A DNA stretch of 63,599 nucleotides from Candidatus Falkowbacteria bacterium UBA917 (lineage in GTDB: Bacteria; Patescibacteriota; Patescibacteriia; Patescibacteriales; Patescibacteriaceae): contig DBEB01000010.1 of NCBI GenBank assembly GCA_002293855.1, positions 1 to 63,599 of the forward strand, read 5' to 3'. The position numbers and the translations under genes are program-made. The notes beneath the pieces were generated by a model. It was not told where the DNA came from. It did not search any database and saw nothing but the letters and a program-made list of their open reading frames with translations. Below are positions 1-42,084 of the stretch, piece after piece (positions within the stretch are counted from its first letter, which is position 1; each line of letters begins with the position of its first letter).

Positions 1-947
1 GGGAAGAACTTGAGATTGCGATAGAGCCAAAGCAGACGACTCAAAAGATCTTTGTCGGTGGACGCAAGGAACTTGGCACTAGCAGAATTAATCAAGAAGT
101 CAGAGAGCGTAACAGCGTCAAACATAATACTCCCCTTTTGATTGATAAAGTAATTAATCCAAGCGCCAATACTCGGCAGGATTTGTCGGCCATCGATCAC
201 GATAGTCTCAGTACCGATCTGAAGACTGTTAGTTAATAATACACTAATTAGCGCATCTTTAAAATCAGGATGATCAACTAACAAATTAATCAAGCGATAA
301 TTGAACTCTGAGATAAAGAGCTGATCACTACTAGCGAGTAAAACTAGTAAATTACTAGAGAGTAAGTCTTTGAACTGTTCGAGAGCGAGTTCTGGACTGA
401 TAGCCGACTCGGTACCAGCTGATGCATCAAGATCAGTAGTCTCCTCGCTAATAGCGCGTAAGTAATCAGGATCATCAGGATAGACGTTCATCGGCTCGCC
501 ATCATCAGGAATGGGAGCTGGCTCAGGATCAGCTTGCCAGAGCATGGTGTCAGCGGCTAACTCAGTGGCGGCTAATTTCCTAAGCTCTTCAACTTCAGCC
601 AAGTAGTCGCTAGCATTAGCGCCGAGTGAGCGGATATAGTTGGCTACATCCTCACCGAGCCAATCAGAGATAGCGAGGAACTTGTAACCAGCTAGATCAC
701 AGATGAATTGACGGAGTTTGGTATCATCAAAATTAAAGACAGCTTTGACTTGATTGTAGAGCTCAGCGAGACGCAGTTCTTTGAGATAGACTGCTTCAAC
801 CAACTCCACCATAGCCGAGCTTTGAATGCCGTCTAAGTCGTATTTTTCAATCAGCAAGACGCTCAAGTCAGCAGCTTTATCGGCAGTTAGCAAATAGAAA
901 ACTTCCTGAGGTAATTGTTTGATTTTAGCTTTGTTAGCGTTATTCAT
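1..947 (-). CDS. hypothetical acidic protein, 3' end cut by window edge (at least 315 aa)
   Basis: This ORF is absent from the track because no stop lies inside the window. I translated the minus strand from the ATG at 947-945 (MNNANKAKIKQLPQEVFYLLTADKAADLSVLLIEKYDLDG...) and found an open frame down to position 1. It starts 6 nt after the stop of the 1061-aa gene. It is D/E-rich, has no obvious TM segment, and matches no family I recognise. Confidence 0.6.
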   Translation of the reverse strand, partial: MNNANKAKIKQLPQEVFYLLTADKAADLSVLLIEKYDLDGIQSSAMVELVEAVYLKELRLAELYNQVKAVFNFDDTKLRQFICDLAGYKFLAISDWLGEDVANYIRSLGANASDYLAEVEELRKLAATELAADTMLWQADPEPAPIPDDGEPMNVYPDDPDYLRAISEETTDLDASAGTESAISPELALEQFKDLLSSNLLVLLASSDQLFISEFNYRLINLLVDHPDFKDALISVLLTNSLQIGTETIVIDGRQILPSIGAWINYFINQKGSIMFDAVTLSDFLINSASAKFLASTDKDLLSRLLWLYRNLKFF

Positions 948-953
948 AGATGA

Positions 954-3900
954 TTATTTACCCCAAGTGCCGTTAGTGATAGCGCTTCTGATCTTCCTAG
1001 CTAGTTCTTCGTTTTTATCAACTGACAAGGAACCGTTCTTACCTTTTTTGAAATTAGTATCTTGTAGATTATTAGCGGCTGAGAAGTCATTGACTGCCTT
1101 AATATTATTTAGATCGAGCTCGGCGATACTTGGATCGCTACCGCCATTTTCAGACTTAAGCTGACGAATGAAATCAACAATGGCCTTGTTGTGTTTGGCG
1201 GTTTTGACATTGATCACAATTGAAGAATTCATATTTAACGCCTTGAGACTTTCGGGGTGATTGTATTTAGCCCAGCGTTCGATAATGGTATTAACTAAGC
1301 CTGGATTATTGTCTTGGCGATTTAGCTGTTCTAATTTGGAAGAACTGACTTGATTGGATAAAATATCAGCTAATCGATCATCTAATTCAGAGCTATCAAT
1401 TTGTTCCAGTTGTTTGGCAGAAGCACTTTGAATAAACTTCTTGACTGCTGATTCATCAAGTACACCGTTTATACCAGTAAAGGCCTTTTTGAGATCGCCC
1501 TTGAGAGCAACATAATGAGTGCGATAGGACTGAGACTCCTTGAGAGCCTTGGCAGCTTCTGATTCAAACTTCAGTTTGTCTGCAGGACTAAGGCCCGGAA
1601 CAATTGATTTGGCCAAAGCATCTTCGGCAGCTTGCTCATGTTTGGTAGCTTCTAACAAAGAAGCATCAGCAATCTTGCCAGCAAAATCTTTACTGCCCTC
1701 CGTATCAATCTTGTTAATAGCGGCGTTATAGCGTCCTGGATCGAGAGCGCCCTTGAAGGCGGAAAGAATCTCAGCTAAGTTATTGGCATCCATATGATTA
1801 ACCTTAAGCTCATCGAGCTTCAGTTTGCCTTTTTTGATCATACCAGACATAGCTTTTTGATCAGATTCTTTTTTCATGTCCCAAATTAGATCAGGTCTGG
1901 TTTTAGCAGTACCGTCTATCAAATCGCGATAGAGAGCGGGGCGATATTTGGCAAGACCGGCAAAATCGTTGAAGGACTTGCGTTGGTCGGTGTTTTCTCG
2001 GTGGTTAACATCATCAAGACGAGCTATCTTGTCATGATGGATAGCACTGAGAACTTCACCATGAAACTTAGCCATGCTAGCTGCTTCATCTTTAGCTGCC
2101 TGTTCTTGACTTCTGTTGCCGAGACGACGGAGATAAGCATCCCAAGCACCGGTTTCCATCATCTTTTGCTGAATAGCATAACGTTCGGCCAGATTTTGAT
2201 TGGCAGCTTGATCAGCGGCGGCGGTAGATTTAAAGTTCTTAGCATCAAAGTTAGCAGAGACAGCACTGGTAGATGCAAAGGCAGTTTCTAGCTCGCTAGC
2301 AGTCATGCTGGCAATAGCGGCAATTTTATCCTTGTGGAGCTTAGAGTATTGAGCTTCTTCTTTGTTAATCACTTCGCGTTCTTTTTTGTACTTATCAGCA
2401 TCGCTATTGAACCAAGTAGCGGTATAGCCCTTGTCTTTGGCTGATAAACCGATGGCGAGGCGCTGTTTGACGTCGCCAGTGTTTCTGTAGGCAGTTTCTA
2501 GTTCGGCTTCAGTAGTTAGATGCTTATATAGACCTTGAGTTTTTTCAATCTCGTCTTTGTCTTTTTTGAAATCTTCGGCACGAGCTTTGGCAGCACCTGG
2601 ACGAGCCTGCCAGCCAGCTAGACCACGAGCAGCCCACTCCGACATAGCCTTAACCTCGACAGCCTTGCCATTGATAGTTGGTAAGAGTTTTTTAGCTTCT
2701 TCGGGATTGAGACCAAGCAAACTCTTGCCGTCAGCTGTAATTTTACCTTCGGCATTTTTTTGATATTTAACACCGTTTTTCATCCAAGAACCAGTATTAC
2801 CGATGGACTGACGCATCTTGGAGACCTCACTGTTGGCATTAGTCCAAGTATTCATAGCCAGAGAATCCTTGGTGCGCTTGAGACCTTGGAGATTGAGATT
2901 GTCCTTAACAAAACCCAGGCCACGACTGCCTGCTCCCTTGAAAAAAGCACTGTCAGCAAATTTAGCAGCACCGACACCAGCTGCACCAACGCCCAGAGCT
3001 CCTTTGCCAACCAGCTTAGCCGCTGATGAACCATAACTCTTGCCCTTTTTCTTGATCCAGCCGGAACCGGCCTTAAGCTGACCCATGCCCCAGACAGCAG
3101 CACCACCAATCAGACCGCCGTAGGACTTGGAAACAATCAGGCCACCAACCAAGAGAGCGATGGCAACGATGTAGCCGATAAAAAACTCAATGCCACTAAT
3201 CTCAGAGATACCGACGACTGGATTAGGATTATTCATGTTACCAAGCAGACCTGAAGCGACACGATTGGGATTGCTGCTAGTAGCGCTATCGAGTGTCGAT
3301 AATGAAAGCCAGATAAAGAAAGCGAGTACCGGACCACTGACAACGGCGTTGGTAAAATCTCCCCACCACTTAGAATAATATTTAGAACTTGGTAGAGCAT
3401 AGGCTAGCCAAGCAAATGGTGAGACAGTGACGTAAATCCAGATCATAATGATGCGCCAGAGCAACATAAAGAGCATCGAGATCAAAACCACACCAGCGAC
3501 GAGTAGATAAGCAAAAGCAAAGAGATAGGTCAGCAAGAGCGAAGTGCCATCAATCTCATAGCCACGGACTTGTGGTGTGTCAACACTCTCCAGATTGGAG
3601 TTGACGCCAGACAGGCTGAGCATCTTATCAATGCCGAGTACTTGAGTTAACTTGGCACCACCAAAGTCACTGAAGCCGTTAACAAAGGTCAACATCACGA
3701 CACTGGAAGCGTCGAGGATAATGCCACAAATAGACTTGGAGAAGTTAATAAATATAGCTGCAATCACTACCTTGGGCAGCATTTTTTTCATGGGATAGCC
3801 ATCGATACCCAAAACAGTAGTAAAGGCAACTACCAAGAGAATCAAAATAAAGAACATGTTGCAGAGATCGCGGATAATCACCCAACCCTTTACTACGACT

Positions 3901-4139
3901 TGAGAGTCAATAAAATCATTGTACTGAGCGAGATAGATAATGCCGGAGATAACCAGAGTGATCAGCCAGCCCATGAACCAAATGATGACACCGAGCAATT
4001 TGGAAATAGCTGACAAAAACCAGCCCTCGACAGTGCCGGTTTGAGCAAAGACTTGAGGGGCAAAAGCAAAAAGTAAAACTAAGCTAAGAACTAGTATTAG
4101 AGAGAGCTGAGTTTTAGTAAGCTTGGTAAAAAAATGCAT
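954..4139 (-). CDS. giant envelope protein: signal peptide, about 8 TM helices (possibly TrbL/VirB6-like topology), then a roughly 650-aa K/E/A-rich helical tail
   Basis: Track ORF, 1061 aa. The N-terminus LSLILVLSLVLLFAFAPQVFAQTG looks like a signal peptide. Hydrophobic runs continue to about residue 350 (LLGVIIWFMGWLITLVISGIIYL, LLLTYLFAFAYLLVAGVVLISMLFMLLWRIIMIWIYV, IEFFIGYIVAIALLVGGLIV). The remainder is charged and contains an internal repeat (TTEAELETAYRNTG / MTASELETAFASTS). The TrbL/VirB6 comparison is recollection only and has not been searched. Confidence 0.75.
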   Translation of the reverse strand: MHFFTKLTKTQLSLILVLSLVLLFAFAPQVFAQTGTVEGWFLSAISKLLGVIIWFMGWLITLVISGIIYLAQYNDFIDSQVVVKGWVIIRDLCNMFFILILLVVAFTTVLGIDGYPMKKMLPKVVIAAIFINFSKSICGIILDASSVVMLTFVNGFSDFGGAKLTQVLGIDKMLSLSGVNSNLESVDTPQVRGYEIDGTSLLLTYLFAFAYLLVAGVVLISMLFMLLWRIIMIWIYVTVSPFAWLAYALPSSKYYSKWWGDFTNAVVSGPVLAFFIWLSLSTLDSATSSNPNRVASGLLGNMNNPNPVVGISEISGIEFFIGYIVAIALLVGGLIVSKSYGGLIGGAAVWGMGQLKAGSGWIKKKGKSYGSSAAKLVGKGALGVGAAGVGAAKFADSAFFKGAGSRGLGFVKDNLNLQGLKRTKDSLAMNTWTNANSEVSKMRQSIGNTGSWMKNGVKYQKNAEGKITADGKSLLGLNPEEAKKLLPTINGKAVEVKAMSEWAARGLAGWQARPGAAKARAEDFKKDKDEIEKTQGLYKHLTTEAELETAYRNTGDVKQRLAIGLSAKDKGYTATWFNSDADKYKKEREVINKEEAQYSKLHKDKIAAIASMTASELETAFASTSAVSANFDAKNFKSTAAADQAANQNLAERYAIQQKMMETGAWDAYLRRLGNRSQEQAAKDEAASMAKFHGEVLSAIHHDKIARLDDVNHRENTDQRKSFNDFAGLAKYRPALYRDLIDGTAKTRPDLIWDMKKESDQKAMSGMIKKGKLKLDELKVNHMDANNLAEILSAFKGALDPGRYNAAINKIDTEGSKDFAGKIADASLLEATKHEQAAEDALAKSIVPGLSPADKLKFESEAAKALKESQSYRTHYVALKGDLKKAFTGINGVLDESAVKKFIQSASAKQLEQIDSSELDDRLADILSNQVSSSKLEQLNRQDNNPGLVNTIIERWAKYNHPESLKALNMNSSIVINVKTAKHNKAIVDFIRQLKSENGGSDPSIAELDLNNIKAVNDFSAANNLQDTNFKKGKNGSLSVDKNEELARKIRSAITNGTWGK

Positions 4140-4166
4140 GTTTCTAAACGACCAAGTTGTTATAAA

Positions 4167-5120
4167 TTATTTAACCACAGAACTAATTGTATCAATCGGA
4201 TGAGCAATCGTATCAACTAAGGCAAGGAGTAAAGCGCTAATGACCAAAAGAATAACCAAGACAATGATATCAAGCAGAGCGACAATAGTAAGCTCTAGAA
4301 AACCAATCCGATCAGAAACTGATTTGAGCAAATATTCTGAAAAACCACTTCCTGCGGCTTTGCTCGCAACTTTAGTTTCAAGCCTTGTCAAACCGGATCC
4401 GAGCCATTCTTGACCAAGCTTGCTAAAGTAATTGGAACCGATGGTAAAGCTCAAAAAAATATGAATATTAATCCAGATCAGTGTTAGCCCCCAGCTCGGA
4501 ACTAGAGCCAGCCAAGATTCTCTAAGTAGAGTGTCAGTGCCTAGACTGACAGCACTCGACACTAGAGAAGATCCAGAGCCATCAGAGTCAGACAATCTGC
4601 TTAGTAATTTATTTTTGATAGCTTGACGCTTGGCGGAGCGGAGTGAGTCACTAGCCTGCTCTAGACGATCGCCTTGTTTGACGATCTGCGAGCCTTCTTT
4701 GCGGATAGCTCGACCAGCACTGTCAACTGCTTGTCCGCTTTCGGCTAAGGCAGTGCCGCCAGCTTGAGCGACAGCTCCAGTGGCAGTAGTGACAGCCCCA
4801 ACAGCGGCAAGTGGCACACCGATGATAGCCCCAGCGCCGGTAGCACTGAGAGCGACACCAGACTCAGTCAGAGAGGCGCCACCACGTTCTAGACCACGAC
4901 CAGTGGCAGCTACGGCTTTACCAGTGACTTTCATAGTCTTGCCAGTAGCTTGGGTAGCAACCCCAGCAGCCTCTACACTGCGACCAGTGTTTTTGACCAC
5001 TTGAACTTTGCGCTGGCGACGAGTGGCTAGCTTTTGTTTACGCAAAAGCTCAGCTCTAGACTGCTCATCAGATTCGTCAGTATCGGATTGTGCTTCAAAC
5101 TCAGAGGCGCTTATTGCCAT
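4167..5120 (-). CDS. hypothetical membrane protein with acidic N-terminus, Gly/Ala/Thr-rich periodic region and two C-terminal TM helices
   Basis: Track ORF, 317 aa. The N-terminus is SEFEAQSDTDESDEQ. Then comes an ATG/TGK-type periodic stretch (ATQATGKTMKVTGKAVAATGRGLERGGASLTESGVALSATGAGAIIGVPLAAVGAVTTATGAVAQAGG). The C-terminus has the hydrophobic runs WGLTLIWINIHIFLSFTIG and LTIVALLDIIVLVILLVISALLLALV. It is the first gene behind its own promoter. Confidence 0.7.
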   Translation of the reverse strand: MAISASEFEAQSDTDESDEQSRAELLRKQKLATRRQRKVQVVKNTGRSVEAAGVATQATGKTMKVTGKAVAATGRGLERGGASLTESGVALSATGAGAIIGVPLAAVGAVTTATGAVAQAGGTALAESGQAVDSAGRAIRKEGSQIVKQGDRLEQASDSLRSAKRQAIKNKLLSRLSDSDGSGSSLVSSAVSLGTDTLLRESWLALVPSWGLTLIWINIHIFLSFTIGSNYFSKLGQEWLGSGLTRLETKVASKAAGSGFSEYLLKSVSDRIGFLELTIVALLDIIVLVILLVISALLLALVDTIAHPIDTISSVVK

Positions 5121-5138
5121 AGCTTTAGCCTATGGCTA

Positions 5139-5167
5139 ATTATAGCATTAAGCGATTTGTATTTCAA
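5139..5167 (-). promoter_or_regulatory. sigma70-type promoter of the three-gene operon (TTGAAA-17 nt-TATAAT)
   Basis: The minus strand reads ttgaaa tacaaatcgcttaatgc tataat. The -10 is at 5144-5139 and the -35 at 5167-5162, with exactly 17 nt between them. The ATG at 5120 lies 18 nt below the -10. Confidence 0.55.
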
Positions 5168-5205
5168 ATAAAAAAACACCGCTAGAGCCAGTTGTTTAGC
5201 GGTGT
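5168..5205 (-). terminator. rho-independent terminator after hpf
   Basis: The minus strand has the stem acaccgcta...tagcggtgt (9 bp) followed by tttttttatttg. It lies directly downstream of the hpf stop. Confidence 0.7.
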
Positions 5206-5227
5206 AAAAATGAAAATGACAAGAGCT

Positions 5228-5533
5228 TTAGGAACGCTTGTCCTTGTATTTTTTAATTGACTCGAGGACATGATCCTTGACCTTGTCGATAGCCTTGTAG
5301 AGATCAGCTTCGGTTTTTTGGATAAAGATATGTTCGCCAGCTAAGACTAGATTGATTTCAGCTTGGAAGATGTCGCCTTTTTGGTGATGTTTGGTAGTGA
5401 GAGCAATCTCAAAATCACAATTAGTAACAGTTTGATTAACTAAATATTTGTCTAACATATCCAGCTTGGCCTGAATATAGTCAGTGATAGCTGGAGTAAG
5501 CTTCAAACCTGTGGCTTTGATTTGGGCGCGCAT
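5228..5533 (-). CDS. hpf: ribosome hibernation promoting factor / RaiA family (short form)
   Basis: 101 aa. MRAQIKATGLKLTPAITDYIQAKLDMLDKYL...FEIALTTKHHQKGDIFQAEINL...ADLYKAIDKVKDHVLESIKKYKDK has the typical YfiA/HPF layout. Confidence 0.85.
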   Translation of the reverse strand: MRAQIKATGLKLTPAITDYIQAKLDMLDKYLVNQTVTNCDFEIALTTKHHQKGDIFQAEINLVLAGEHIFIQKTEADLYKAIDKVKDHVLESIKKYKDKRS

Positions 5534-5537
5534 ATCA

Positions 5538-6713
5538 TTAAAACTTAGTGAATAAACTTTTAATTTGGCAGGATAAACAACCTAACTTACTGATGTCAGC
5601 AATGCTAACAAAAACAATCATAATAATTAAGAGCAAAAAGAAGACATTATTAAAGATCATTTCCAGTTGCCGGTTCATAACCTTGCCACGAATTTTTTCA
5701 ATCAAGAGGAAAAAGAGTCGACCGCCATCAAGAGCCGGAATCGGCAAGATATTGAGGACGGCGAGGTTAACTGATAGAGCGGCCGAGAATTGCAAGACAT
5801 AGGCTAGTCCTAGATCAACCATCTGACCAGTGATGCCGTAGATACCGATCGGTCCAGCGACAGCTTGGCCACTCGCCTGGCCTTGGAAGAGTTTAGCAAA
5901 GAATTGCCAGAGGCCGATAATAATCATAGCAAGGAGCATGTAGACCGAGATAGCCGCCTGATAAATAGCACGGTACCAAGGGTAACGGACAGTAGCAATC
6001 TGATCGAGACCCACACCGACACCAATAATCTCTTCGCTGGCGCTGACACTTAGTTTACGAGGGGTTAACTCTTTGCTGAGGAACTGATTGCCACGACGAA
6101 CCTGATAAATGACCGGAGTATCTAGTTTGGTCTTGATGAAGTTTTGGATATCTGCAGTACTAGCAAAGTTCTGACCGTCGATGCTGACAATGATGTCGCC
6201 GGCCTTGATACCGCCAGTTTCAGCCGGAGAATCAGCAATTACTGAGGTGATTTGAATGCGAGGATCTTGATAATTTTTGAGATGAGCCTGACTCTGGTCA
6301 TAGGATTCTGGCAAACCAGTGATAGCAAAAGCGCAGAAAAGAATAAACCAAGCCAGAATGACATTCATGATCACGCCAGCGGATAGGATAAGAGCACGTT
6401 TCCAGATGACTTGAGCGCCAAAACTATCAGAATCATGGTTACCATTGTCATTTTCGCCCTTGATTTTGACAAAGCCGCCGAGAGGGATCCAGTTGAGAGA
6501 ATAGACAGTTGAATCATGATCAGTGATCTCTCGCCCACCCCAGACGCGCACCCATTTGCCTTGGCGTTTGTAGAGGCCGCAGAGACGTGGTGGAAAACCG
6601 AAGCCAAACTCGTCACAAGCGACTTTGAAGTAGCGAGCAACAGCGAAGTGGCCGAGTTCGTGGACAAAAACTAGTAGTCCGAGGATGAGGAAAAAAGTAA
6701 TGAAAGTAAGCAT
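5538..6713 (-). CDS. rseP: RIP metalloprotease RseP (site-2 protease, M50) with PDZ domain
   Basis: 391 aa. It has HELGH near the N-terminus (FVHELGHFAVA), a PDZ-like segment (AETGGIKAGDIIVSIDGQ) and the C-terminal NLAVLNILPIPALDGGR motif. Confidence 0.9.
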   Translation of the reverse strand: MLTFITFFLILGLLVFVHELGHFAVARYFKVACDEFGFGFPPRLCGLYKRQGKWVRVWGGREITDHDSTVYSLNWIPLGGFVKIKGENDNGNHDSDSFGAQVIWKRALILSAGVIMNVILAWFILFCAFAITGLPESYDQSQAHLKNYQDPRIQITSVIADSPAETGGIKAGDIIVSIDGQNFASTADIQNFIKTKLDTPVIYQVRRGNQFLSKELTPRKLSVSASEEIIGVGVGLDQIATVRYPWYRAIYQAAISVYMLLAMIIIGLWQFFAKLFQGQASGQAVAGPIGIYGITGQMVDLGLAYVLQFSAALSVNLAVLNILPIPALDGGRLFFLLIEKIRGKVMNRQLEMIFNNVFFLLLIIMIVFVSIADISKLGCLSCQIKSLFTKF

Positions 6714-6714
6714 A

Positions 6715-7269
6715 TTAAATAGTCATGATGTCTTTTTCTTTTTTATCGCTAATTTCTTTGAGATTGTTATTACGATCAGAGATTTCTTCTTCTAACTCCT
6801 TGAGGAAGCGGAATTTATCATCCTCGCCTAACTCCTTGGCAGCAAAGGCCTTTTCAATCTCAGTTTTAATCTCATCTCTAAGTTTACGCAATTCAACACG
6901 AGCTTGTTCAAACTTGACGCCCAATTTCTTGACCAATTCGCGACGGTTTTCTTCGGTCAGTGGCGGCATGGAGAGACGGAGGCGTTCACCTTCATTGACG
7001 ATAGAAAAGCCCAGATCAGCGATGACTAGAGCTTTTTCGATGTCTTTGAGAACGCTCTTGTCCCAAGCAGAAATCAGAATGCTAGAACTATCAGAGAGTG
7101 AAATATTACCGAGAGCATTGATAGGACTACGAGTCCCATAGGCTTCGACCTGCACAGCGTCGAGCATAGCAGGATTGATACGGCCAGTACGGAGTCCAGC
7201 GATATCTTTTTTGAAATAGTCTTCTAGTTGAGTAAAGGCGCTTTGACGATCGCTAATGTATTGATTCAT
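6715..7269 (-). CDS. frr: ribosome recycling factor
   Basis: 184 aa. LRTGRINPAMLDAVQVEAYG...LSMPPLTEENRRELVK is the classic RRF pattern. Confidence 0.95.
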   Translation of the reverse strand: MNQYISDRQSAFTQLEDYFKKDIAGLRTGRINPAMLDAVQVEAYGTRSPINALGNISLSDSSSILISAWDKSVLKDIEKALVIADLGFSIVNEGERLRLSMPPLTEENRRELVKKLGVKFEQARVELRKLRDEIKTEIEKAFAAKELGEDDKFRFLKELEEEISDRNNNLKEISDKKEKDIMTI

Positions 7270-7277
7270 ATAAGTAA

Positions 7278-8348
7278 TTAATTATTCGGTTCACGAACTC
7301 CTAGATAAATTAAGCCGTCTTGATTGGGATCGGAGAGAATCTTCCAGGCCCGACGAGTAGTTGGGATAGGAGTAGTGGTCCAGTTCTCACCACCATCAAT
7401 ACTACGATAGAAGGTGGCGTCAGTGATATAGTAGAGCAACTGAGGATTTTTGTAATTAACAGCCAAAGAATTGATAGTAACTGGTTCCTTGGGCGTTAAT
7501 AGCTTGATTTCTGTCCAATCATCACCATTATTGACAGTGCGCAGTAGCCCGTATTTCAAGGCTAACAAAAATCCACCGTCTTGGGAAGGGACACTGATGA
7601 GGTCACGCAAAGAACGATCACCTTTGAATTCTTTGAGTTTGTCAGATAAATCTAGCCAAGTAACCCCAGCGTCAGTAGTGCGATAGAGCTTGCCATTGCT
7701 AAGGCCGATCATAATAGTCCGACTATCAGACTTGCTGATGACAATTTTTTTGATTTCATTCTTAAAAATTTGAATATTTTGCCAGCTCACGCCGTAATCA
7801 GAGCTCTTGATCAAATTGCCATTATCCGTACCAATATAGACAAGGGCCGGATTATAGTGATCGATAGCTAGCGAACGAACTACAGCATTAGCATTGGCAT
7901 CAGTGTAAGCAACTTGCCAGCTACGGCCACAATCTGAGCTTTTGAGTAATTTAGAGCCGATTGAGCTGTAGATTTGACACTTGTTCTTGGGATCAACCGC
8001 TAAATCGACAATCACTTGGACATTGAGAGCTTTGGAACGGCTAGGCGACCAGGATTCAGCACCGTCATAACTAGTCATAATCCCCTTTTCAAACATGCCG
8101 AGATAAAGAGCCTTACTGTCAGACGGATCCATGGCCATAGAATAAATCGCTAGATTGGTCATAGACAGATTTTGACCGTTGGTACCGAGGATGGAGTTGC
8201 GAGTTACCCAAGTCTGACCGTGATCAGTGGACTTGAAGAGACCGCCGTTACTTGGCAATTTGGTACCGCCGCCAATGCCGAGATTGAGAGTGCAACCCGA
8301 GACTAGGAAGCTCAGCACTAAAAGAATTAATAATTTGGATTTAGGCAT
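7278..8348 (-). CDS. lipoprotein with seven BNR/Asp-box repeats (beta-propeller, Ycf48/sortilin-like)
   Basis: 356 aa. The lipobox is LVSGC. There are seven SxDxGxxW-type boxes: STDHGQTW, SYDGAESW, SSDCGRSW, SSDYGVSW, TTDAGVTW, VNNGDDW, SIDGGENW. Confidence 0.8.
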   Translation of the reverse strand: MPKSKLLILLVLSFLVSGCTLNLGIGGGTKLPSNGGLFKSTDHGQTWVTRNSILGTNGQNLSMTNLAIYSMAMDPSDSKALYLGMFEKGIMTSYDGAESWSPSRSKALNVQVIVDLAVDPKNKCQIYSSIGSKLLKSSDCGRSWQVAYTDANANAVVRSLAIDHYNPALVYIGTDNGNLIKSSDYGVSWQNIQIFKNEIKKIVISKSDSRTIMIGLSNGKLYRTTDAGVTWLDLSDKLKEFKGDRSLRDLISVPSQDGGFLLALKYGLLRTVNNGDDWTEIKLLTPKEPVTINSLAVNYKNPQLLYYITDATFYRSIDGGENWTTTPIPTTRRAWKILSDPNQDGLIYLGVREPNN

Positions 8349-9534: not shown

Positions 9535-11352
9535 TTATTTAGTAATCAGTACTGAACCGTGTCCAGTAAGCGAAGTAGTGCTAAGTCGCCAAAAATAGGC
9601 GCCACTAGCTAGATTGAGCTGTATAGAACCGCTACCATCAAGCTTATCAGAATAAAGCAACTGGCCAGCGCTGGAATAAATAACCAAGCTAGCGAGTTCA
9701 TCTAACTGATAATTAACCAGGCCGTAGCTACTGATCTTGATCATGGATTTGACTACAATCTCATCAACAGAGTTGGTGCTGATCTTTTTTAAGAGCTCAT
9801 CAACATCTTTTTGATTGATCGTGCCATCACCATTGAAGTCAAAAGCCCAGAGCTGATAGAGCTTAGGGTTTTTGAGTCGACCAGCCAAGTAGTCAATCAG
9901 CCGAGTAAGATCAGCTTGATCGAGCTTGGCATTGCCAAAGTTATCATCCGAATCACCTTTTTTGAAGCTCACAAAGATTGGCTTCATGTCCATGGTCCAA
10001 TCGAGAAGCTTAGTAGAGTTAACAGACTTACCCGAGCTGTCTTTGGCGATAATGTTTTCTATCTTTAGATTAACAAAACCATAAGGTAGGTCAGTGAATC
10101 TAAAGTTTAGAATCGCGAAGAGCTTGGGATTATCCGTAGCAAGATTAGCAGGCCAAAAACTTTTGGCGACTAATTCAACGAGATAGCTGTTAGTACCGAC
10201 AGTCGAGGAAGTTTTTTTAACAGTCCCAAAGGAGCCGTCAAAAGAACTAACCACATTATCTAGACTCATATAGTCAGCTACAGTTAATTGAAAAGTAACT
10301 GACCTGATCTTTTTGTCTAGATTGTCAATTTTTAAGCCAGTAATCAGCTCACCGTAGCCTGTCAACTTGTATTTATCCAAGCTAACAATAGGCGCCGATG
10401 CATCAGCCAAGAACTTAACGGTTTCAGTGACCATAGAGAAAGGCTCTTTGAGATCAACCGCCAGACTAATTTCTGTAGCTGTAGTCAGAGCTTTACCAGC
10501 AGACTGAGCAAGGAAATTATTTAGCTTTAGCTCTACAGGTCCCCGGCTATCAGCTGGGAAATTAAGAGTGAGGCTAAATAACTTTTTGTAATCGCTGCTA
10601 GCCGGCACAACTGCATTCATGACGAGTCGCCATTTGCCGTTACCGAGACCGGTAACTGAGGCAACTGCCGGCGAAACGACTGGCTTTGGCCAAGTACTAG
10701 GCAGAATCAAATCTGCAGCTAGACTGTCAAAGCTTTTGCCAGAATACTCGAGATCTAGATTAACTAGATTAAGAGTTTCGGTTCTAGATACTTGAGCATT
10801 GACCAATCTGAGGTTTAATTCAGAGGGTGGTAAATTACCAAGCTCGATAATGATTGAGCGACTTGTTGGAACTGGCAAAGACTTACCACTAGCATCAGTC
10901 ACTCGGAAATTATCGAAGATTACCTTGAGTTGACCAGTTGTTGGAATTGGTTTTTTTGTTTTAAGAAAAAAACTCATAATCTTGCGCAGCTGTGAACTCT
11001 CAGCGAGAAAGTCCGCAGCCTTACCAGGATCCATCCAATAATGAAACTCAAAGCCGGCGCTTTTTGATGTGGGCTGAGTCCATTTAGACTCATCTTTTTT
11101 GCCATCGGCACCGAAGCATTCAGCTGGAATTGGCTCAGCGCCAAAATCCTCACACTGAATGTATTCAAACTTGAGATCAAAGACAAGATCTTTGATGGCT
11201 GGGCTATTGGCCACATGCACATCAAACCAGATGATATTATCCTTGCGATTCACCGGGTAGGACGATTGGTTCATAGACAGGTCAAAGGATTGACCAAACA
11301 CAGAAACAGCACTGACGAGCAGTGCAAACAGAACAGAAACAGAAAGTTTCAT
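9535..11352 (-). CDS. secreted protein: three cohesin-like modules + dockerin-like EF-hand pair + C-terminal T9SS-CTD/FlgD-Ig-like beta-sandwich
   Basis: 605 aa. The signal peptide is MKLSVSVLFALLVSAVSVFGQ. Three modules end in related motifs: LKVIFDNFRVTDASGKSLPV, VELKLNNFLAQSAGKALT and VNLKIENIIAKDSSGKSVNS. The dockerin-like duplicate is GDSDDNFGNAKLDQADLTRLIDYLAG / DFNGDGTINQKDVDELLKKI. The tail is LVIYSSAGQLLYSDKLDGSGSIQLNLASGAYFWRLSTTSLTGHGSVLITK. An AGGAG SD sits 6 nt before the ATG. Confidence 0.8.
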   Translation of the reverse strand: MKLSVSVLFALLVSAVSVFGQSFDLSMNQSSYPVNRKDNIIWFDVHVANSPAIKDLVFDLKFEYIQCEDFGAEPIPAECFGADGKKDESKWTQPTSKSAGFEFHYWMDPGKAADFLAESSQLRKIMSFFLKTKKPIPTTGQLKVIFDNFRVTDASGKSLPVPTSRSIIIELGNLPPSELNLRLVNAQVSRTETLNLVNLDLEYSGKSFDSLAADLILPSTWPKPVVSPAVASVTGLGNGKWRLVMNAVVPASSDYKKLFSLTLNFPADSRGPVELKLNNFLAQSAGKALTTATEISLAVDLKEPFSMVTETVKFLADASAPIVSLDKYKLTGYGELITGLKIDNLDKKIRSVTFQLTVADYMSLDNVVSSFDGSFGTVKKTSSTVGTNSYLVELVAKSFWPANLATDNPKLFAILNFRFTDLPYGFVNLKIENIIAKDSSGKSVNSTKLLDWTMDMKPIFVSFKKGDSDDNFGNAKLDQADLTRLIDYLAGRLKNPKLYQLWAFDFNGDGTINQKDVDELLKKISTNSVDEIVVKSMIKISSYGLVNYQLDELASLVIYSSAGQLLYSDKLDGSGSIQLNLASGAYFWRLSTTSLTGHGSVLITK

Positions 11353-33195: not shown

Positions 33196-33633
33196 ATGAT
33201 GACAAGCAAAGACTTTGAAGATGTGCTACAGACTATAGCGGCTCTAGACAAAGAATTTAATGACTACACTGATAAACTCTGTCAGTATTTACTAAGCTTA
33301 TCTGGAGCTAAAACAAGTTACGGCTCGCCACTAAGTAGAATGAAGATAGTCGAAGATTTTGAGCAAAAAGCTAAGCTAAACAAGCAAGCAGTAGCTAAAC
33401 TCATTGACCGTAACAGATTGATAAATGAAGAGCTACTAGGGATTTGCCAAGCAAACGGTGGAGAGATCAATGAAGTGGCTAGTAACTACTGCTATGTTGC
33501 AAAGAAAATACTCTGCGATTCTATTGACATGAGAGTACTAGTACTACAGCGAGCCTGCAAAACACAGGCATTAAAAATTATTGCCTTGAATACTTGGCCA
33601 GTGAGCATAGATCAAAAAAACCGCCTCAATTAA
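33196..33633 (+). CDS. hypothetical protein
   Basis: 145 aa. An AGGAG SD lies 6 nt upstream of the ATG. It looks helical and soluble. No family was recognised. The stop codon lies in the loop of the terminator hairpin. Confidence 0.6.
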   Translation: MMTSKDFEDVLQTIAALDKEFNDYTDKLCQYLLSLSGAKTSYGSPLSRMKIVEDFEQKAKLNKQAVAKLIDRNRLINEELLGICQANGGEINEVASNYCYVAKKILCDSIDMRVLVLQRACKTQALKIIALNTWPVSIDQKNRLN

Positions 33634-33646
33634 GGCGGTTTTTTCT
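33614..33646. terminator. bidirectional terminator between convergent genes
   Basis: aaaaaaaccgcctcaattaaggcggttttttc has the stem aaccgcc/ggcggtt, with an A-run and a T-run on either side. Confidence 0.75.
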
Positions 33647-33659
33647 TTGTCTAGTCAGA

Positions 33660-34238
33660 TTATTTCTTGCTAGTCTTTTTGGCTTTTGGCTCAGCCTTAG
33701 CTCTGGTCTTTTTGACTGGAGCTTCAGCTTGAGCGATCTCTTCGATCAGTTCTTCAATTTCGTCATTGAAGACCTTAGGAGTAGCTGGGATATTGAGAGC
33801 CTTGATAATAGTATCAAGCTTAGCATGCAGAGAGCTAAACTGATCTTTACACTGGCAAGAACCACCAGACTTAGGAGCAGCAGAGCTACCACCACGACCG
33901 AAACAATTGTCACAGAAAACTGGCTTACCGCTGGTAGGGCGGAAAGGCACTTGGCAGCGATTGCCACAAGTGTCACAGCTAGCTGGGAACATTTTCTTTT
34001 CAGCGCGATCAAAGCTGTTGTAACGATCACGACCGAAATCACGATCATCATAATCGTTATCACGTTGCTGACCAAAACATTCACTGCAATAAACTGGTTT
34101 GTCACCAGTTGGGCGGAAAGGCACTTCACAGCTACGACCACAGTCGGAGCAAGTAGCACGGTGCATAGTCTTTTCACGATCGCCGCCGAAGCGCTTAGAG
34201 CCACCGAAGGAGCGATTTTCTCGTCTAAATTGTCCCAT
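33660..34238 (-). CDS. tandem CxxC-x17-CxxC zinc-ribbon protein with RGG-like N-terminus and lysine-rich tail
   Basis: 192 aa. It has two copies of C(S/D)xCGxxCxVPFRPTxxKPV(Y/F)CxxCF (CSDCGRSCEVPFRPTGDKPVYCSECF and CDTCGNRCQVPFRPTSGKPVFCDNCF). The C-terminal tail is KKTRAKAEPKAKKTSKK. Confidence 0.8.
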   Translation of the reverse strand: MGQFRRENRSFGGSKRFGGDREKTMHRATCSDCGRSCEVPFRPTGDKPVYCSECFGQQRDNDYDDRDFGRDRYNSFDRAEKKMFPASCDTCGNRCQVPFRPTSGKPVFCDNCFGRGGSSAAPKSGGSCQCKDQFSSLHAKLDTIIKALNIPATPKVFNDEIEELIEEIAQAEAPVKKTRAKAEPKAKKTSKK

Positions 34239-34379
34239 ATTTATTAAAAAATTATTTATAAGCTATTAGTTCAGTTGGATCGCCAAATAGAGAAAATAGC
34301 TAATTAAGCGCAAAGTGAAGAATAGTAAGTCACTATTATCACATATTTTTGATAAAAAAGCAAGAGTGGCCTCGAGTGG

Positions 34380-38763: not shown

Positions 38764-41700
38764 ATGTCTTTTGAAACACGTTATCAAAATCTAAATGATG
38801 AGCAGAGACTAGCTGTCGACACGATCGATGGACCAGTGATGGTGGTAGCGGGTCCTGGCACAGGCAAGACAGAGTTACTGGGCCTGCGAGTAGCCAATAT
38901 CCTGAGACAAAGTGACGCACTGCCGTCCAATATACTATGTCTAACTTTTACCGAGTCCGGAGCGAGTAATATGCGAGCGCGTTTAGTGGGCCTGATTGGT
39001 AATGAGGCTTACAAAGTAGCTATCCATACCTTTCATAGTTTTGCGCTCGACATCAGTCAACGTTTTCGTGAAGAGTTTTATGAAGCCCGACAAATGTCGC
39101 CAGCCGATGAAATCAGGCAAATCGAAACACTAGGCAGAATCCTAGCCAAAGCCCCCTACGGCGACGCGCTAGCTAGTAAAAATGAACAAGGCTTTGTCTA
39201 TCTCAAAAGCGTCAGAGATCGAATCAGCAAATTAAAAAGAGCCGGTCTAACGCCGGCAGAGTTTGCCATGATTTTACAAAGTAATCTAGCGAGTTACGAA
39301 CAGATCGAAAGCTTGCTACTGCCGGTCTTTGATAGCACTGTTTCCAAAAAAACTCGTGAAGCGATACCGGAATTACTAGCCGAGCTAAAATCCTTACCGA
39401 GACAAGGGTCAGCGATTAGTCATAGCAGCTTACTGGATTATACTGAGCTCTTAATCGTTAGCCTGGAGCTTGCTTACACCGAAGCAGTTGAAGAAGCTAA
39501 CACCAAGGCTCTAACGGCTTGGAAAAATAGCTGGTTTAAAAAAGACACTGATAACAAAGAGCTACATCTGAAAGACAAGCATCAGCTGAAGAGAAACTTG
39601 TCGCTTGCTGCCGTCTATGCCGAGTACCAACAAATCATGAACGCGGAAGCTTGCGTGGACTTTGATGATATGATCATGGATTTGATTCAAATCCTGATTA
39701 AAAAACCCGGCCTAATGGCCGAACTCCAAGAGCAGTATCAATATATCTTGGTTGATGAGTTTCAAGATACTAACGAAGCTCAGATGAGGATTATAAATCT
39801 ACTTGCTGATAATCCAGTCAATGAAGGTCGTCCCAATCTGATGGTAGTCGGTGATGATGATCAGGCGATTTACAAATTCCAAGGTGCGGAACTAAATAAT
39901 GTTTTGCAATTTCAAAAAACTTATCCAGCCACCCAATTTATCAGTCTCAATAAAAACTACCGTTCAACTGCGCCGATTGTAGATTTTGCTCAGATTATCA
40001 TCAAGCAAGGTCAAGAAAGATTAGATAAGCATTTGCCTGAGCTGAAGAAATTTTTACAAGCCGCCAATAGCCAGTTGCGTCCCGGCCAAATCAAAGTCTT
40101 GAGCTTTGACACAGTCACTCACGAATATAGTTATTTGATCGAGGAGATCAAAGCTCAATTAGCAAAGGGTACGCCAGCTACAGAAATTGCCGTCATTGCC
40201 CGCAATCATCGTCAGCTACTCGGTCTAGTACCGCAATTGCAGGCAGCTGGCATAACTATCGCCTATGAAAAACAACGCAATGTCCTCGAAGAAGAACATA
40301 TTATTCAATTAATTAATCTGGCTAAATTAGTACAGGCTCTTGCCAGTGAGGGACTCGCCTACGCTCAAGAACTACTGACTGAAGTAATTGGCTATAAGTT
40401 TTGGGGCCTAGCACGCAAAACAGTTTGGCAACTAGCTATTGAAGCGAGTGAGCATCGCAAAGATCTCAGCAAGGGTCGCTGGCTCGACGCTATGCTCGCT
40501 AACTCTGATCCAGACCTGGTAGCGCTAGCCGAATGGCTACTAGAACTCGCTGCTCGAGCCAAGACTCAGAGTCTAGCGCAACTACTTGATGAACTGATCG
40601 GACCAGAACAAGAGACAGTAGAGTTTAGCTCGCCTTTTCGTCGTTATTATTTTAATCGTGAGAATTACCAAAAAAATCCAAGCGCCTATCTAGACTTTTT
40701 GGCAGCCCTCAATAGCTTTGTTAATAGGATTCGTAGCTACGCTAATACAGTTGACTCACCGAGATTACAAGACTTGATTGACTGCGTGGCGGCACACCAA
40801 AAACACGGCGTCGCCATCACTGATACTAGTCCAAGCCTAGGCGGCGAACAAGCTATCAATCTACTGACTGCTCACAAAGCTAAAGGCCTAGAATTTGACA
40901 CAGTCTTTGTAGTTAATTGCCAAGAAAATATCTGGACTAAAGGGCAAAAAAACGAGCTCATAGCATTCCCCAAAAATCTACCGATTGATCCAACCGCAGA
41001 AAGTATGGATGACTATTTGCGATTATTTTTTGTGGCAATCACCCGTGCTCGTAGGCAGCTCTACTTGACTGGTTACCGAGCCGAAAACAATGGTAAAGAG
41101 GCTCTAGGTTTGCCGTTTTTGGCACCAGATAATTTTAGCCAGTTTGCTCATCAACTAGATCTGAGCGAACAAAAAATAAATCAAGAGTCATTGATTACTA
41201 GTCTAGCAATGATCAATGCACCGGCGCCAATTAATTTACAAACTGACGAAAAAGCTTTGCTCGCTCCCCTGCTCGAACATTATGCGATGAGTGTGACCCA
41301 TTTGAATAATTTCTTGAATGTGACTCAAGGCGGTCCGCACAGCTTCTTGGAGCAAAACTTATTACATTTTCCACAAGCTAAAAGTGTTTTTACTAGCTAT
41401 GGCACAGCGATGCATGCGACCATTGAAGCAATCTATCATCATCTCAAAACCAGAGAGGCCCTACCAAGTCTAGAAGAAGTACAAAACTATTTTGCTGAGA
41501 AACTAGGCAAAGAAAAAATGTCAGAACTGGATTATAAAGATTATTTAGCCAAGGGTCGAGAAGTTTGGCAGAGCTACTGGATGCAAGCCAAACAGAGAAT
41601 AGCCAAAGAACACTGGATTGAAACTGATTTTAAACAACAGCAGGTAGTGGTTGATGGGGTTTTGATTACCGGTAAGATTGACAAGATTGTCGTCGATGAA

Positions 41701-42084
41701 GAGTCCAAAATGATGCGGGTCTATGATTTTAAGACCGGCAATCCAACTCAGAATTGGCAAGGTCATGATGAGAAGGAAAAAATCAAGCTCCATGGCTATA
41801 AACGACAACTGGCTTTCTATAAACTACTGGTCGAAAATAGTCGAGACTACCATCAGTATCAAGTAGCTGAAGGAGCGCTGGAGTTTCTCAGTCTGAGTAA
41901 TCGAGGCGAGATGATAGTACTCAATCACACTATCACCGAGCCAGAGCTAGAGAGATTAAAGACTCTCATCAAAGCAGTTGATCACAAAATCAGATCCTTG
42001 GACTTTCCTGATACTAGTCACTATGAACAGTCACTAGCTGGCATGATAGCCTTTGAAGATGATTTGCTCACAGGGCTCAGCTAA
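38764..42084 (+). CDS. UvrD/PcrA-type SF1 helicase fused to a C-terminal PD-(D/E)xK (RecB/AddA-like) nuclease
   Basis: 1106 aa. Helicase motifs are AGPGTGKT, LCLTFTESGA, ILVDEFQDTN, VVGDDDQAIYKFQGA, TAHKAKGLEFDTVFV and FFVAITRARRQLYL. The nuclease tail is GTAMHATIE...GKIDKIVVDEESKMMRVYDFKTG...YKRQLAFYKLL. It starts 1 nt after the exonuclease stop. Confidence 0.85.
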   Translation: MSFETRYQNLNDEQRLAVDTIDGPVMVVAGPGTGKTELLGLRVANILRQSDALPSNILCLTFTESGASNMRARLVGLIGNEAYKVAIHTFHSFALDISQRFREEFYEARQMSPADEIRQIETLGRILAKAPYGDALASKNEQGFVYLKSVRDRISKLKRAGLTPAEFAMILQSNLASYEQIESLLLPVFDSTVSKKTREAIPELLAELKSLPRQGSAISHSSLLDYTELLIVSLELAYTEAVEEANTKALTAWKNSWFKKDTDNKELHLKDKHQLKRNLSLAAVYAEYQQIMNAEACVDFDDMIMDLIQILIKKPGLMAELQEQYQYILVDEFQDTNEAQMRIINLLADNPVNEGRPNLMVVGDDDQAIYKFQGAELNNVLQFQKTYPATQFISLNKNYRSTAPIVDFAQIIIKQGQERLDKHLPELKKFLQAANSQLRPGQIKVLSFDTVTHEYSYLIEEIKAQLAKGTPATEIAVIARNHRQLLGLVPQLQAAGITIAYEKQRNVLEEEHIIQLINLAKLVQALASEGLAYAQELLTEVIGYKFWGLARKTVWQLAIEASEHRKDLSKGRWLDAMLANSDPDLVALAEWLLELAARAKTQSLAQLLDELIGPEQETVEFSSPFRRYYFNRENYQKNPSAYLDFLAALNSFVNRIRSYANTVDSPRLQDLIDCVAAHQKHGVAITDTSPSLGGEQAINLLTAHKAKGLEFDTVFVVNCQENIWTKGQKNELIAFPKNLPIDPTAESMDDYLRLFFVAITRARRQLYLTGYRAENNGKEALGLPFLAPDNFSQFAHQLDLSEQKINQESLITSLAMINAPAPINLQTDEKALLAPLLEHYAMSVTHLNNFLNVTQGGPHSFLEQNLLHFPQAKSVFTSYGTAMHATIEAIYHHLKTREALPSLEEVQNYFAEKLGKEKMSELDYKDYLAKGREVWQSYWMQAKQRIAKEHWIETDFKQQQVVVDGVLITGKIDKIVVDEESKMMRVYDFKTGNPTQNWQGHDEKEKIKLHGYKRQLAFYKLLVENSRDYHQYQVAEGALEFLSLSNRGEMIVLNHTITEPELERLKTLIKAVDHKIRSLDFPDTSHYEQSLAGMIAFEDDLLTGLS

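Follow-up and report, generated by a model that had tools for sequence, protein, structure and literature searches.

The first three genes of a probable nine-gene type IV secretion operon in Candidatus Falkowbacteria bacterium UBA917

The locus

The stretch of DNA considered here, referred to throughout as the window, comprises 63,599 nucleotides of contig DBEB01000010.1 from Candidatus Falkowbacteria bacterium UBA917. Its first 5,167 nucleotides harbor a promoter-like element and three minus-strand genes, termed g1, g2 and g3, which an earlier note on this DNA had presented as a stand-alone operon of orphan envelope proteins. Matching longer contigs continue the cluster beyond the window edge with six further genes, including those for PrgI/VirB3 and a VirB4 ATPase. 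Positions 1-5167 very probably represent the promoter and first three genes of a nine-gene chromosomal operon that encodes a monoderm type IV secretion system (T4SS), related to mating pair formation class FATA (MPF-FATA) and widespread in Patescibacteria. Gene content, gene order, conservation and fold similarity, on which this reading is built, were established directly. The individual features are collected in Table 1.

Table 1. Features of the locus; positions are those of the window except where a contig, L084, is named
Feature	Position	Strand	Length	Description
Intrinsic terminator of hpf	5170..5204	(-)		stem CACCGCTA...TAGCGGTG and T-run, read from the sequence
Predicted sigma-70-type promoter	5167..5139	(-)		TTGAAA-17-TATAAT with TG-extended -10
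g1	5120..4167	(-)	317 aa	conserved T4SS-cluster membrane protein; variable charged N-terminus and conserved C-terminal module
Gly/Ala/Thr-rich stretch of g1, ~aa 45-150	4671..4988	(-)		weak 7-residue period
g2	4139..954	(-)	1061 aa	open reading frame with the two parts below
g2 N-terminal domain, aa 1-345	3105..4139	(-)		signal-peptide-like helix and putative polytopic VirB6/TrbL-like platform
g2 C-terminal tail, aa 346-1061, stop included	954..3104	(-)		hydrophilic, basic; candidate "extended VirB6" domain
g3	947..1	(-)	315 codons; full length 399 aa	frame open at the window edge
g4	L084:11204-12673		489 aa	no identification
PrgI/VirB3			155 aa	PF12666, E 1.1e-8, 35.9 bits against a cut-off of 27
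TrsD/TraC-like			220 aa	weak TraC_F_IV match (7.8e-4); precomputed PF26593 TraC-like
VirB4 ATPase			634 aa	P-loop_TraG 2.4e-28, AAA_10, DUF87
g8	L084:15729-16313		194 aa	bitopic; no Pfam identification on the 99%-identical copy
ComF-like	L084:16317-17033		238 aa	double zinc ribbon and phosphoribosyltransferase domain

The promoter region and the genes of the window

The upstream limit of the operon is marked by the intrinsic terminator of hpf, a hairpin with a GC stem and a T-run; the identity of hpf itself comes from a PF02482 match among the called genes of a near-identical contig. Directly past this hairpin, as the earlier note had remarked, lies a near-consensus promoter, which agrees with the sigma-70 consensus at 11 of 12 positions and is the top-scoring site in a promoter scan of positions 1-7500. 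It presumably acts as the promoter of g1. The end of its -10 hexamer is separated from the ATG of g1 by 18 nt (window 5120-5139), and the mRNA leader is therefore expected to be very short, at roughly a dozen bases, in which no clear Shine-Dalgarno sequence was seen on inspection.

The three genes are tightly packed, and the list of open reading frames (ORFs) agrees with the earlier description in giving gaps of 27 nt between g1 and g2 and of 6 nt between g2 and g3. Direct comparison of all three products with Pfam and NCBIfam (hmmscan) and with the sequences of the PDB (by phmmer in the case of g2) produced no match, and the remark that the trio carries no recognisable family motif is borne out at this level. 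The outward descriptions of the proteins are likewise in agreement with the sequence analysis: g1 has a charged head, a periodic region rich in Gly, Ala and Thr, and two C-terminal helices; g2, by hydropathy and its AlphaFold2 (AF2) model, has a signal-peptide-like start, a polytopic part and a long charged tail; and g3 is acidic, with an isoelectric point (pI) of 4.27, and soluble. The designation as envelope proteins is doubtful for g3, which has neither a signal peptide nor a hydrophobic transmembrane (TM) segment.

The operon beyond the window edge

A 21-kb contig carrying a protein 99% identical to g2 extends past the point at which the window ends. Contig L085 is identical to the window across 5200 nt and encodes the full-length g3 (P0121), and the 467-kb contig L084 differs from the window by 1 nt. 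On L084 and L085, six further genes follow g3 with gaps of 2-9 nt before a convergent gene is reached, giving the order g1, g2, g3, g4, PrgI/VirB3, TrsD/TraC-like, VirB4, g8 and ComF. The Pfam identities of the downstream genes were obtained on a 99%-identical copy of the operon, and the TrsD identity of the 220-aa protein is based on position together with weak TraC-type matches. It had been suggested that a VirB4-like ATPase might be found by extending the contig leftwards, and VirB4 does indeed lie within the same operon.

Promoters and terminators inside the operon occur at chance-level counts. With the cluster continuing past the edge and no internal promoter or terminator standing out, the window trio is therefore taken to be that third of a nine-gene operon which lies closest to the promoter, the remainder being cut off at the window edge, rather than a stand-alone unit, and the nine genes are probably co-transcribed. 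The last of them, the ComF-like gene, is separated from g8 by a 3-nt gap, which fits the association of comF with T4SS genes that has been reported for class ABY1.

Conservation of gene order

In a scan of one genome per species, relatives of the g2 N-terminal domain were found to be encoded in 455 genomes, the informative titles of which refer to Candidatus Falkowbacteria or to the Patescibacteria group. Synteny was counted across 80 loci kept from species-level genomes, which were searched with all nine proteins. The series g1-g2-g3-g4-PrgI-TrsD-VirB4-g8 is fully collinear and on one strand in 36 of the 80, and 10 of these 36 run on into ComF, while most of the remaining loci hold truncated forms of the same order. 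Among the 54 informative loci, those in which the DNA extends 7.5 kb or more downstream, g3 is present in 50, g1 in 49, g4 and PrgI in 45 each, the TrsD-like gene and VirB4 in 44 each, and g8 in 41; ComF follows the cluster in 11. The joint encoding of g2 with VirB3 and VirB4 in one operon is accordingly kept in 44-45 of the 54. Upstream, g1 directly precedes the gene for the VirB6-like protein in 62 of 69 loci with sufficient DNA on that side. The synteny that the earlier note had proposed to look for is thus kept across related species, with the difference that the conserved unit is the nine-gene cluster and not the trio.

Many related contigs are titled "uncultured Gammaproteobacteria bacterium" and yet encode the Patescibacteria-type cluster, so those titles look unreliable.

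The VirB6-like protein g2

After its signal-peptide-like N-terminus, g2 has six to seven further hydrophobic helices between residues 37 and 341, as judged from hydropathy and the AF2 model, in which the long helices span residues 37-71, 80-109, 120-157, 198-238, 253-288 and 317-341. Residues 1-345 accordingly have the polytopic, all-helical character, with five or more hydrophobic helices, that typifies VirB6. The model covers residues 1-365, was built from a 27-sequence alignment and has a pLDDT (predicted local distance difference test) score of 71.8. When it was compared by Foldseek with 350,542 PDB chains, ranks 1-5 were all occupied by TrwI/VirB6 of plasmid R388, with probabilities of 0.98-1.00, E values of 0.014-0.12, target-normalised template-modelling (TM) scores of 0.42-0.50 and 284-301 aligned columns; below rank 5 the matches were either further TrwI chains or of low probability. 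The predicted fold of g2 thus appears to resemble that of TrwI in a modest but specific manner.

Sequence comparisons among the relatives of g2 point, if weakly, in a similar direction. Of 27 relatives, six match the NCBIfam model for the CD3337/EF1877 mobilome membrane protein, and one match each was found to the Mbov_0396 ICE transmembrane protein (5.7e-11; ICE, integrated conjugative element) and to the MMCAP2_0566 conjugal transfer protein (1.3e-7). Across 96 aligned homologues, all 96 of which are 779-1160 aa long, 28 residues are invariant, and broad conservation is confined to the first ~345 residues. Given the TrwI fold matches, the weak sequence matches and the fixed place upstream of PrgI-VirB4, the N-terminal domain is therefore taken to be a VirB6 component, more precisely a divergent relative of VirB6/TrbL that is not a member by the Pfam threshold. 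The description of g2 as an orphan does not hold, as a search with the profile of its N-terminal domain recovers 23,418 representatives of 50%-identity clusters at E<=1e-3, of which 18,626 remain at E<=1e-10 and 5,256 at E<=1e-30; almost all are 780-1200 aa in length and carry the domain at the N-terminus.

Two further leads were set aside. A profile of the full-length g2 family matched SMC and dynactin entries of the PDB through the tail, and these were dismissed as compositional matches to coiled-coil or low-complexity sequence. The label PF19590, which is precomputed for many g2 homologues, was neither reproduced nor named in the Pfam copy used, and no mention of it was found in the literature.

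The C-terminal tail comprises 716 aa, with much Ala and Lys and little Pro, and has a grand average of hydropathy of -0.62 and a pI of 9.4. Self-BLAST detected no internal repeats within it, and its identity falls from ~35-50% among close relatives to ~10% in distant members. Extended VirB6 proteins are known in TraG of the F plasmid and in the VirB6 paralogues of the Rickettsiales. Such proteins are defined by five or more hydrophobic helices together with a large central or C-proximal hydrophilic domain, the role of which is unknown (PMC12857230). From its predicted helices and its 716-aa hydrophilic tail, which is C-proximal, g2 fits this definition; no sequence relation was seen between its tail and the others, and the tail of the g2 family differs in being non-repetitive and fast-diverging.

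The location of this tail was considered from the distribution of charge. In the g2 family, residues 338-420, just past the last hydrophobic helix, are strongly basic (Lys plus Arg 13.5, Asp plus Glu 3.3), while the loops at 156-197 and 281-318 are acidic and variable and that at 111-123 is basic, a positive-inside pattern that is consistent from residue 111 on. By the positive-inside rule, this basic juxtamembrane segment places the tail in the cytoplasm, which is its most likely location, although this assignment is held loosely.

The accessory proteins g1, g3, g4 and g8

The conserved part of g1 is a C-terminal module, which in the family alignment (A3) is composed of a first TM segment with the pattern W..N.I.SFGLTL..I..HVFL, a loop bearing the FCKLGxEW motif and a strongly hydrophobic second TM segment. 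The two helices lie at ~204-228 and ~275-305, with ~45 residues between them. The N-terminal region varies in both length and sequence, and the family ranges from 115 to 377 aa; in the window protein it begins MAISASEFEAQSDTDESDEQ... and is charged, without a hydrophobic leader. The Gly/Ala/Thr-rich stretch is an insertion unique to the window g1 among the 35 aligned sequences (A3 columns ~160-250). In its place, the 34 relatives carry short, charged and variable sequence.

The earlier note had compared g1 with the VirB2-like partner of VirB6/TrbL systems, and this comparison was found not to hold. None of the 35 family members matched the TrbC/VirB2 (PF04956) or T4SS_pilin (PF18895) models at E<=1, any other Pfam model or any PDB sequence, and hhalign gave no signal between the g1 family and R388 TrwL. 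At 317 aa and with no leader peptide, g1 lacks the leader and small size that mark a VirB2 pilin; it does have two hydrophobic helices, though ~45 residues apart, and it is instead read as a putative conserved small membrane subunit of the T4SS complex.

The AF2 model of g3 (pLDDT 75.9) is all-helical, with two domains and a disordered acidic linker, and a PDB fold search with it came up empty (best E 1.5). By hhalign (probability 97.5%, E 6.5e-12), g3 and g4 are homologous over an N-terminal domain of ~90 aa that has no Pfam match, and the cluster therefore encodes two soluble, domain-sharing proteins that both lack a signal peptide. The relatives of g8 show weak Pfam matches to NTF2-like and SpoIIIAH domains. 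When the g1, g3, g4 and g8 families were compared by hhalign with PrgD-M of pCF10 and TrwL/M/J/I/G of R388, the sole signal was a weak one between g8 and PrgL (probability 11.8%, E 0.0025). On these grounds g8 is a candidate VirB8 analogue.

Comparison with known type IV secretion systems

The T4SS of Patescibacteria, which belongs to an MPF-FATA-related clade, has been surveyed by Quinonero-Coronel et al. (2025), who described VirB4, TrsD, PrgI and VirB6 without a relaxase (PMC12102498). In that survey, comF, recG and radA were commonly found near T4SS genes in class ABY1, relaxases were present in only about 100 Patescibacteria genomes and near virB4 in only 15 cases, and a role in the import of DNA or macromolecules, or some other non-conjugative role, was proposed (PMC12102498). 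The window operon shares with these systems the order VirB6-like ... PrgI/VirB3 - TrsD-like - VirB4, with PrgI/VirB3 and the TrsD-like protein encoded directly upstream of virB4, and it resembles them also in its chromosomal location and in having comF nearby, as in ABY1. Its VirB4, identified by profile (P-loop_TraG), is a presumptive member of the Patescibacteria clade. In the operon, its 10-kb flanks and the ten largest of the window's other ORFs, neither a relaxase nor a coupling protein turned up.

The locus SEML1_0006-0019 of Southlakia epibionticum ML1 encodes a T4SS that is essential (Wang et al. 2023, PMC10633639). Within it, SEML1_0011 (998 aa) and SEML1_0013 (1088 aa) are both essential and lie upstream of genes for PrgI, a hypothetical protein and VirB4; the closest structural match of SEML1_0013 is a TrbL/VirB6 protein, and its C-terminal region is ARM-repeat-like (PMC10633639). 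Compared by description, the two loci are alike in having a VirB6-like protein of ~1000 aa with a helical C-terminal extension. They differ in that Southlakia has two VirB6-like genes where the window cluster has one, and in that the VirB2-like pilin array and the lysozyme and peptidase genes found there are absent from the window cluster and its surroundings. A locus-level look at the operon and its L084 flanks revealed no small pilin-like gene; in T4SSs of the Patescibacteria type, VirB2-like genes often, but not invariably, lie close to virB4. The conserved g1, g3 and g4, moreover, are extras without a named counterpart in Southlakia or in the Patescibacteria T4SS more generally.

In some respects g2 mirrors TrwI of R388 (PDB 7O3V, 8RT9, 8RTD), which is also all-helical and polytopic, with about seven long helices, and is also encoded together with VirB3 and VirB4. 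TrwI, in contrast, is a protein of 342 aa without the signal-peptide-like helix and 716-aa C-terminal domain of g2, and the host of g2 is a monoderm in which VirB5, VirB7, VirB9 and VirB10 are absent. The closer parallel in gene order is with pCF10 (PrgF-PrgG-PrgH-PrgI-PrgJ-PrgK-PrgL), where small membrane proteins, the VirB6-like PrgH, PrgI (VirB3) and a VirB4-type ATPase are encoded in the same order, and the Pfam match of the window operon to PrgI is above threshold. However, PrgH has 266 aa and no tail, the plasmid also carries a coupling protein, a relaxase, a hydrolase (PrgK) and adhesins, and g1, g3 and g4 have no significant profile match to any Prg protein, with that between g8 and PrgL being weak.

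Among the possibilities raised in the earlier note, a T4SS of the VirB6/TrbL type is therefore the one upheld, by PrgI/VirB3, the TrsD/TraC-like protein and VirB4 in the same operon and by the TrwI/VirB6 fold matches. The locus is a new member of the already published monoderm-type T4SS of Patescibacteria, with little that is new in kind.

Assessment and alternative explanations

A number of observations weigh against this interpretation. The fold match is limited, with query-normalised TM scores of 0.33-0.40 beside the E values and pLDDT given above. At the sequence level, g2 itself does not match the TrbL/VirB6 profile (PF04610), and similarity to this family stays under its cut-off, TrbL being found in 7 of the 27 relatives at a best E of 8.1e-4; in P0051, for instance, it maps to residues 149-302 with 16.2 bits against a cut-off of 25.9. 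The g2 N-domain profile found no match among PDB sequences, and its hhalign comparison with the single TrwI and PrgH sequences was not significant, because single-sequence templates give little power. The positive-inside rule is the sole basis for the topology of the tail, helix parity fails to work out over the first 110 residues, and in the R388 structure only two hydrophobic VirB6 helices are truly membrane-embedded, such that hydropathy mispredicts topology. The cluster encodes neither a VirB2-like pilin nor a cell-wall hydrolase nor a coupling protein, so its function may not be the same as that of the Southlakia system. Finally, the co-transcription proposed for the nine genes is based on their spacing only.

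Of the alternatives, the most durable is that the same T4SS serves as a competence-type DNA-uptake system, comparable to the Helicobacter ComB T4SS with ComF and ComEC, rather than as an exporter. A ComF-like gene ends the operon, the same gene is found after the cluster in 11 of the 54 informative loci, the ABY1 neighborhood of comF, recG and radA has been reported along with the proposal of DNA or macromolecule import (PMC12102498), and the large ORFs of the window include neither a relaxase nor a coupling protein. ComF adjacency is nonetheless confined to a minority of loci, and in Southlakia the T4SS is essential whereas comEC is not, so that the essentiality of the T4SS there is not explained by DNA uptake. 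An uptake role is judged unlikely, if a good deal better placed than the remaining alternatives.

It is very improbable that the locus is an integrated conjugative element, or the decaying remnant of one, rather than a resident chromosomal machine. VirB4, PrgI and TrsD are conjugation-type components, and relatives of g2 match ICE and mobilome membrane proteins in NCBIfam. Against this, the flanks are of housekeeping type (hpf, rseP, frr, a holB-like gene and malic enzyme), no integrase, relaxase or coupling protein occurs among the large window ORFs, GC content is even along the window, and the cluster is widely conserved across species; this chromosomal setting without a coupling protein or relaxase makes an ICE unlikely.

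Little credence can be given to the view that the trio forms a self-contained orphan envelope module, an undescribed surface or attachment apparatus in candidate phyla radiation (CPR) bacteria unrelated to secretion systems. The empty direct searches with the trio and the lack of a recognisable family or fold for g1 and g3 would accord with it, but it is refuted by the six additional genes uncovered by contig extension, by a nine-gene order kept across species, by VirB6 proteins being the best fold matches of g2 and by the prior description of the type of system itself, which is covered by a survey (PMC12102498) and is essential in Southlakia epibionticum (PMC10633639). Equally improbable is that g2 is a transporter permease that merely adjoins T4SS genes: the domain is polytopic and membrane-located, its homologues P0050 and P0056 are named "DMT family transporter" at source and KEGG K01992 (ABC permease) is assigned to SEML1_0011 and SEML1_0013, but neither g2 nor its 27 relatives match a DMT/EamA or ABC-2 Pfam model, no ABC ATPase gene is adjacent, the top fold matches are to VirB6 and not to transporters, and its place upstream of PrgI-VirB4 is fixed. 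The transporter names of P0050 and P0056 are not backed by domain evidence.

Proposed mechanism

The operon, read as that of a Patescibacteria T4SS, includes three universal inner-membrane parts of such systems, namely VirB3, VirB4 and the VirB6-like protein. By analogy with characterised systems, among them the R388 structure, the N-terminal domain of g2 would oligomerise in the cytoplasmic membrane to form a platform or channel at the centre of the system, above the VirB4 ATPase, with PrgI/VirB3 tethering VirB4 to the membrane and g1 probably acting as a conserved small membrane partner of the g2 platform. The ~700-aa basic tail would form a fast-evolving accessory domain, most likely on the cytoplasmic side, where together with g3 and g4 it could provide docking or assembly functions and perhaps stand in for a coupling protein, for which no gene was found nearby. 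What is transferred may be protein, or else DNA or other macromolecules passed between the cell and its host.

A more far-reaching proposal can be advanced tentatively, and is itself rather unlikely to be right in full. It holds that g1, g3, g4 and the VirB6 tail constitute a lineage-specific cytoplasmic and membrane module (Falkowbacteria/ABY1-like) that replaces the coupling protein and perhaps the pilus. It would serve as a platform of a new type, for substrate recruitment or for assembly, in a T4SS that trades macromolecules with the host cell, and might be coupled to ComF-dependent DNA processing.

Other features of the window

The other large ORFs of the window are of housekeeping type, and include SecY, AspRS, DnaB, a UvrD-family helicase/nuclease fusion, a P-type ATPase and similar proteins. 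The fusion, at 38764-42084 (+), is an 1106-aa UvrD-family helicase joined to a PD-(D/E)XK nuclease domain and appears to be an ordinary repair gene. A 605-aa protein at 9535-11352 (-) is possibly a surface protein; its only signal is a dockerin type I repeat just short of the cut-off (E 1.1e-4, 22.8 bits where 22.9 is required). Positions 33594-34247 harbor overlapping ORFs on both strands, of 217 aa (+) and of 192 and 152 aa (-), and a search of this segment found no Rfam family or tRNA.

Biological significance

The case illustrates how a window edge can disguise a known system as an orphan module. It also suggests that large "hypothetical" polytopic proteins missed by standard annotation in this lineage are its VirB6 component, and that VirB6-like giants make up a very large family, with ~18,600 cluster representatives at E<=1e-10. 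The machinery encoded by T4SS genes is so far the only one for secretion on which the epibiotic life of a cultivated Patescibacterium has been shown to depend. The uncharacterised genes g1, g3 and g4 travel with the T4SS core in fixed order. Lineage-specific function, such as the choice of substrate or contact with the host, is most naturally sought in their three products and in the VirB6 tail, which evolves fast.

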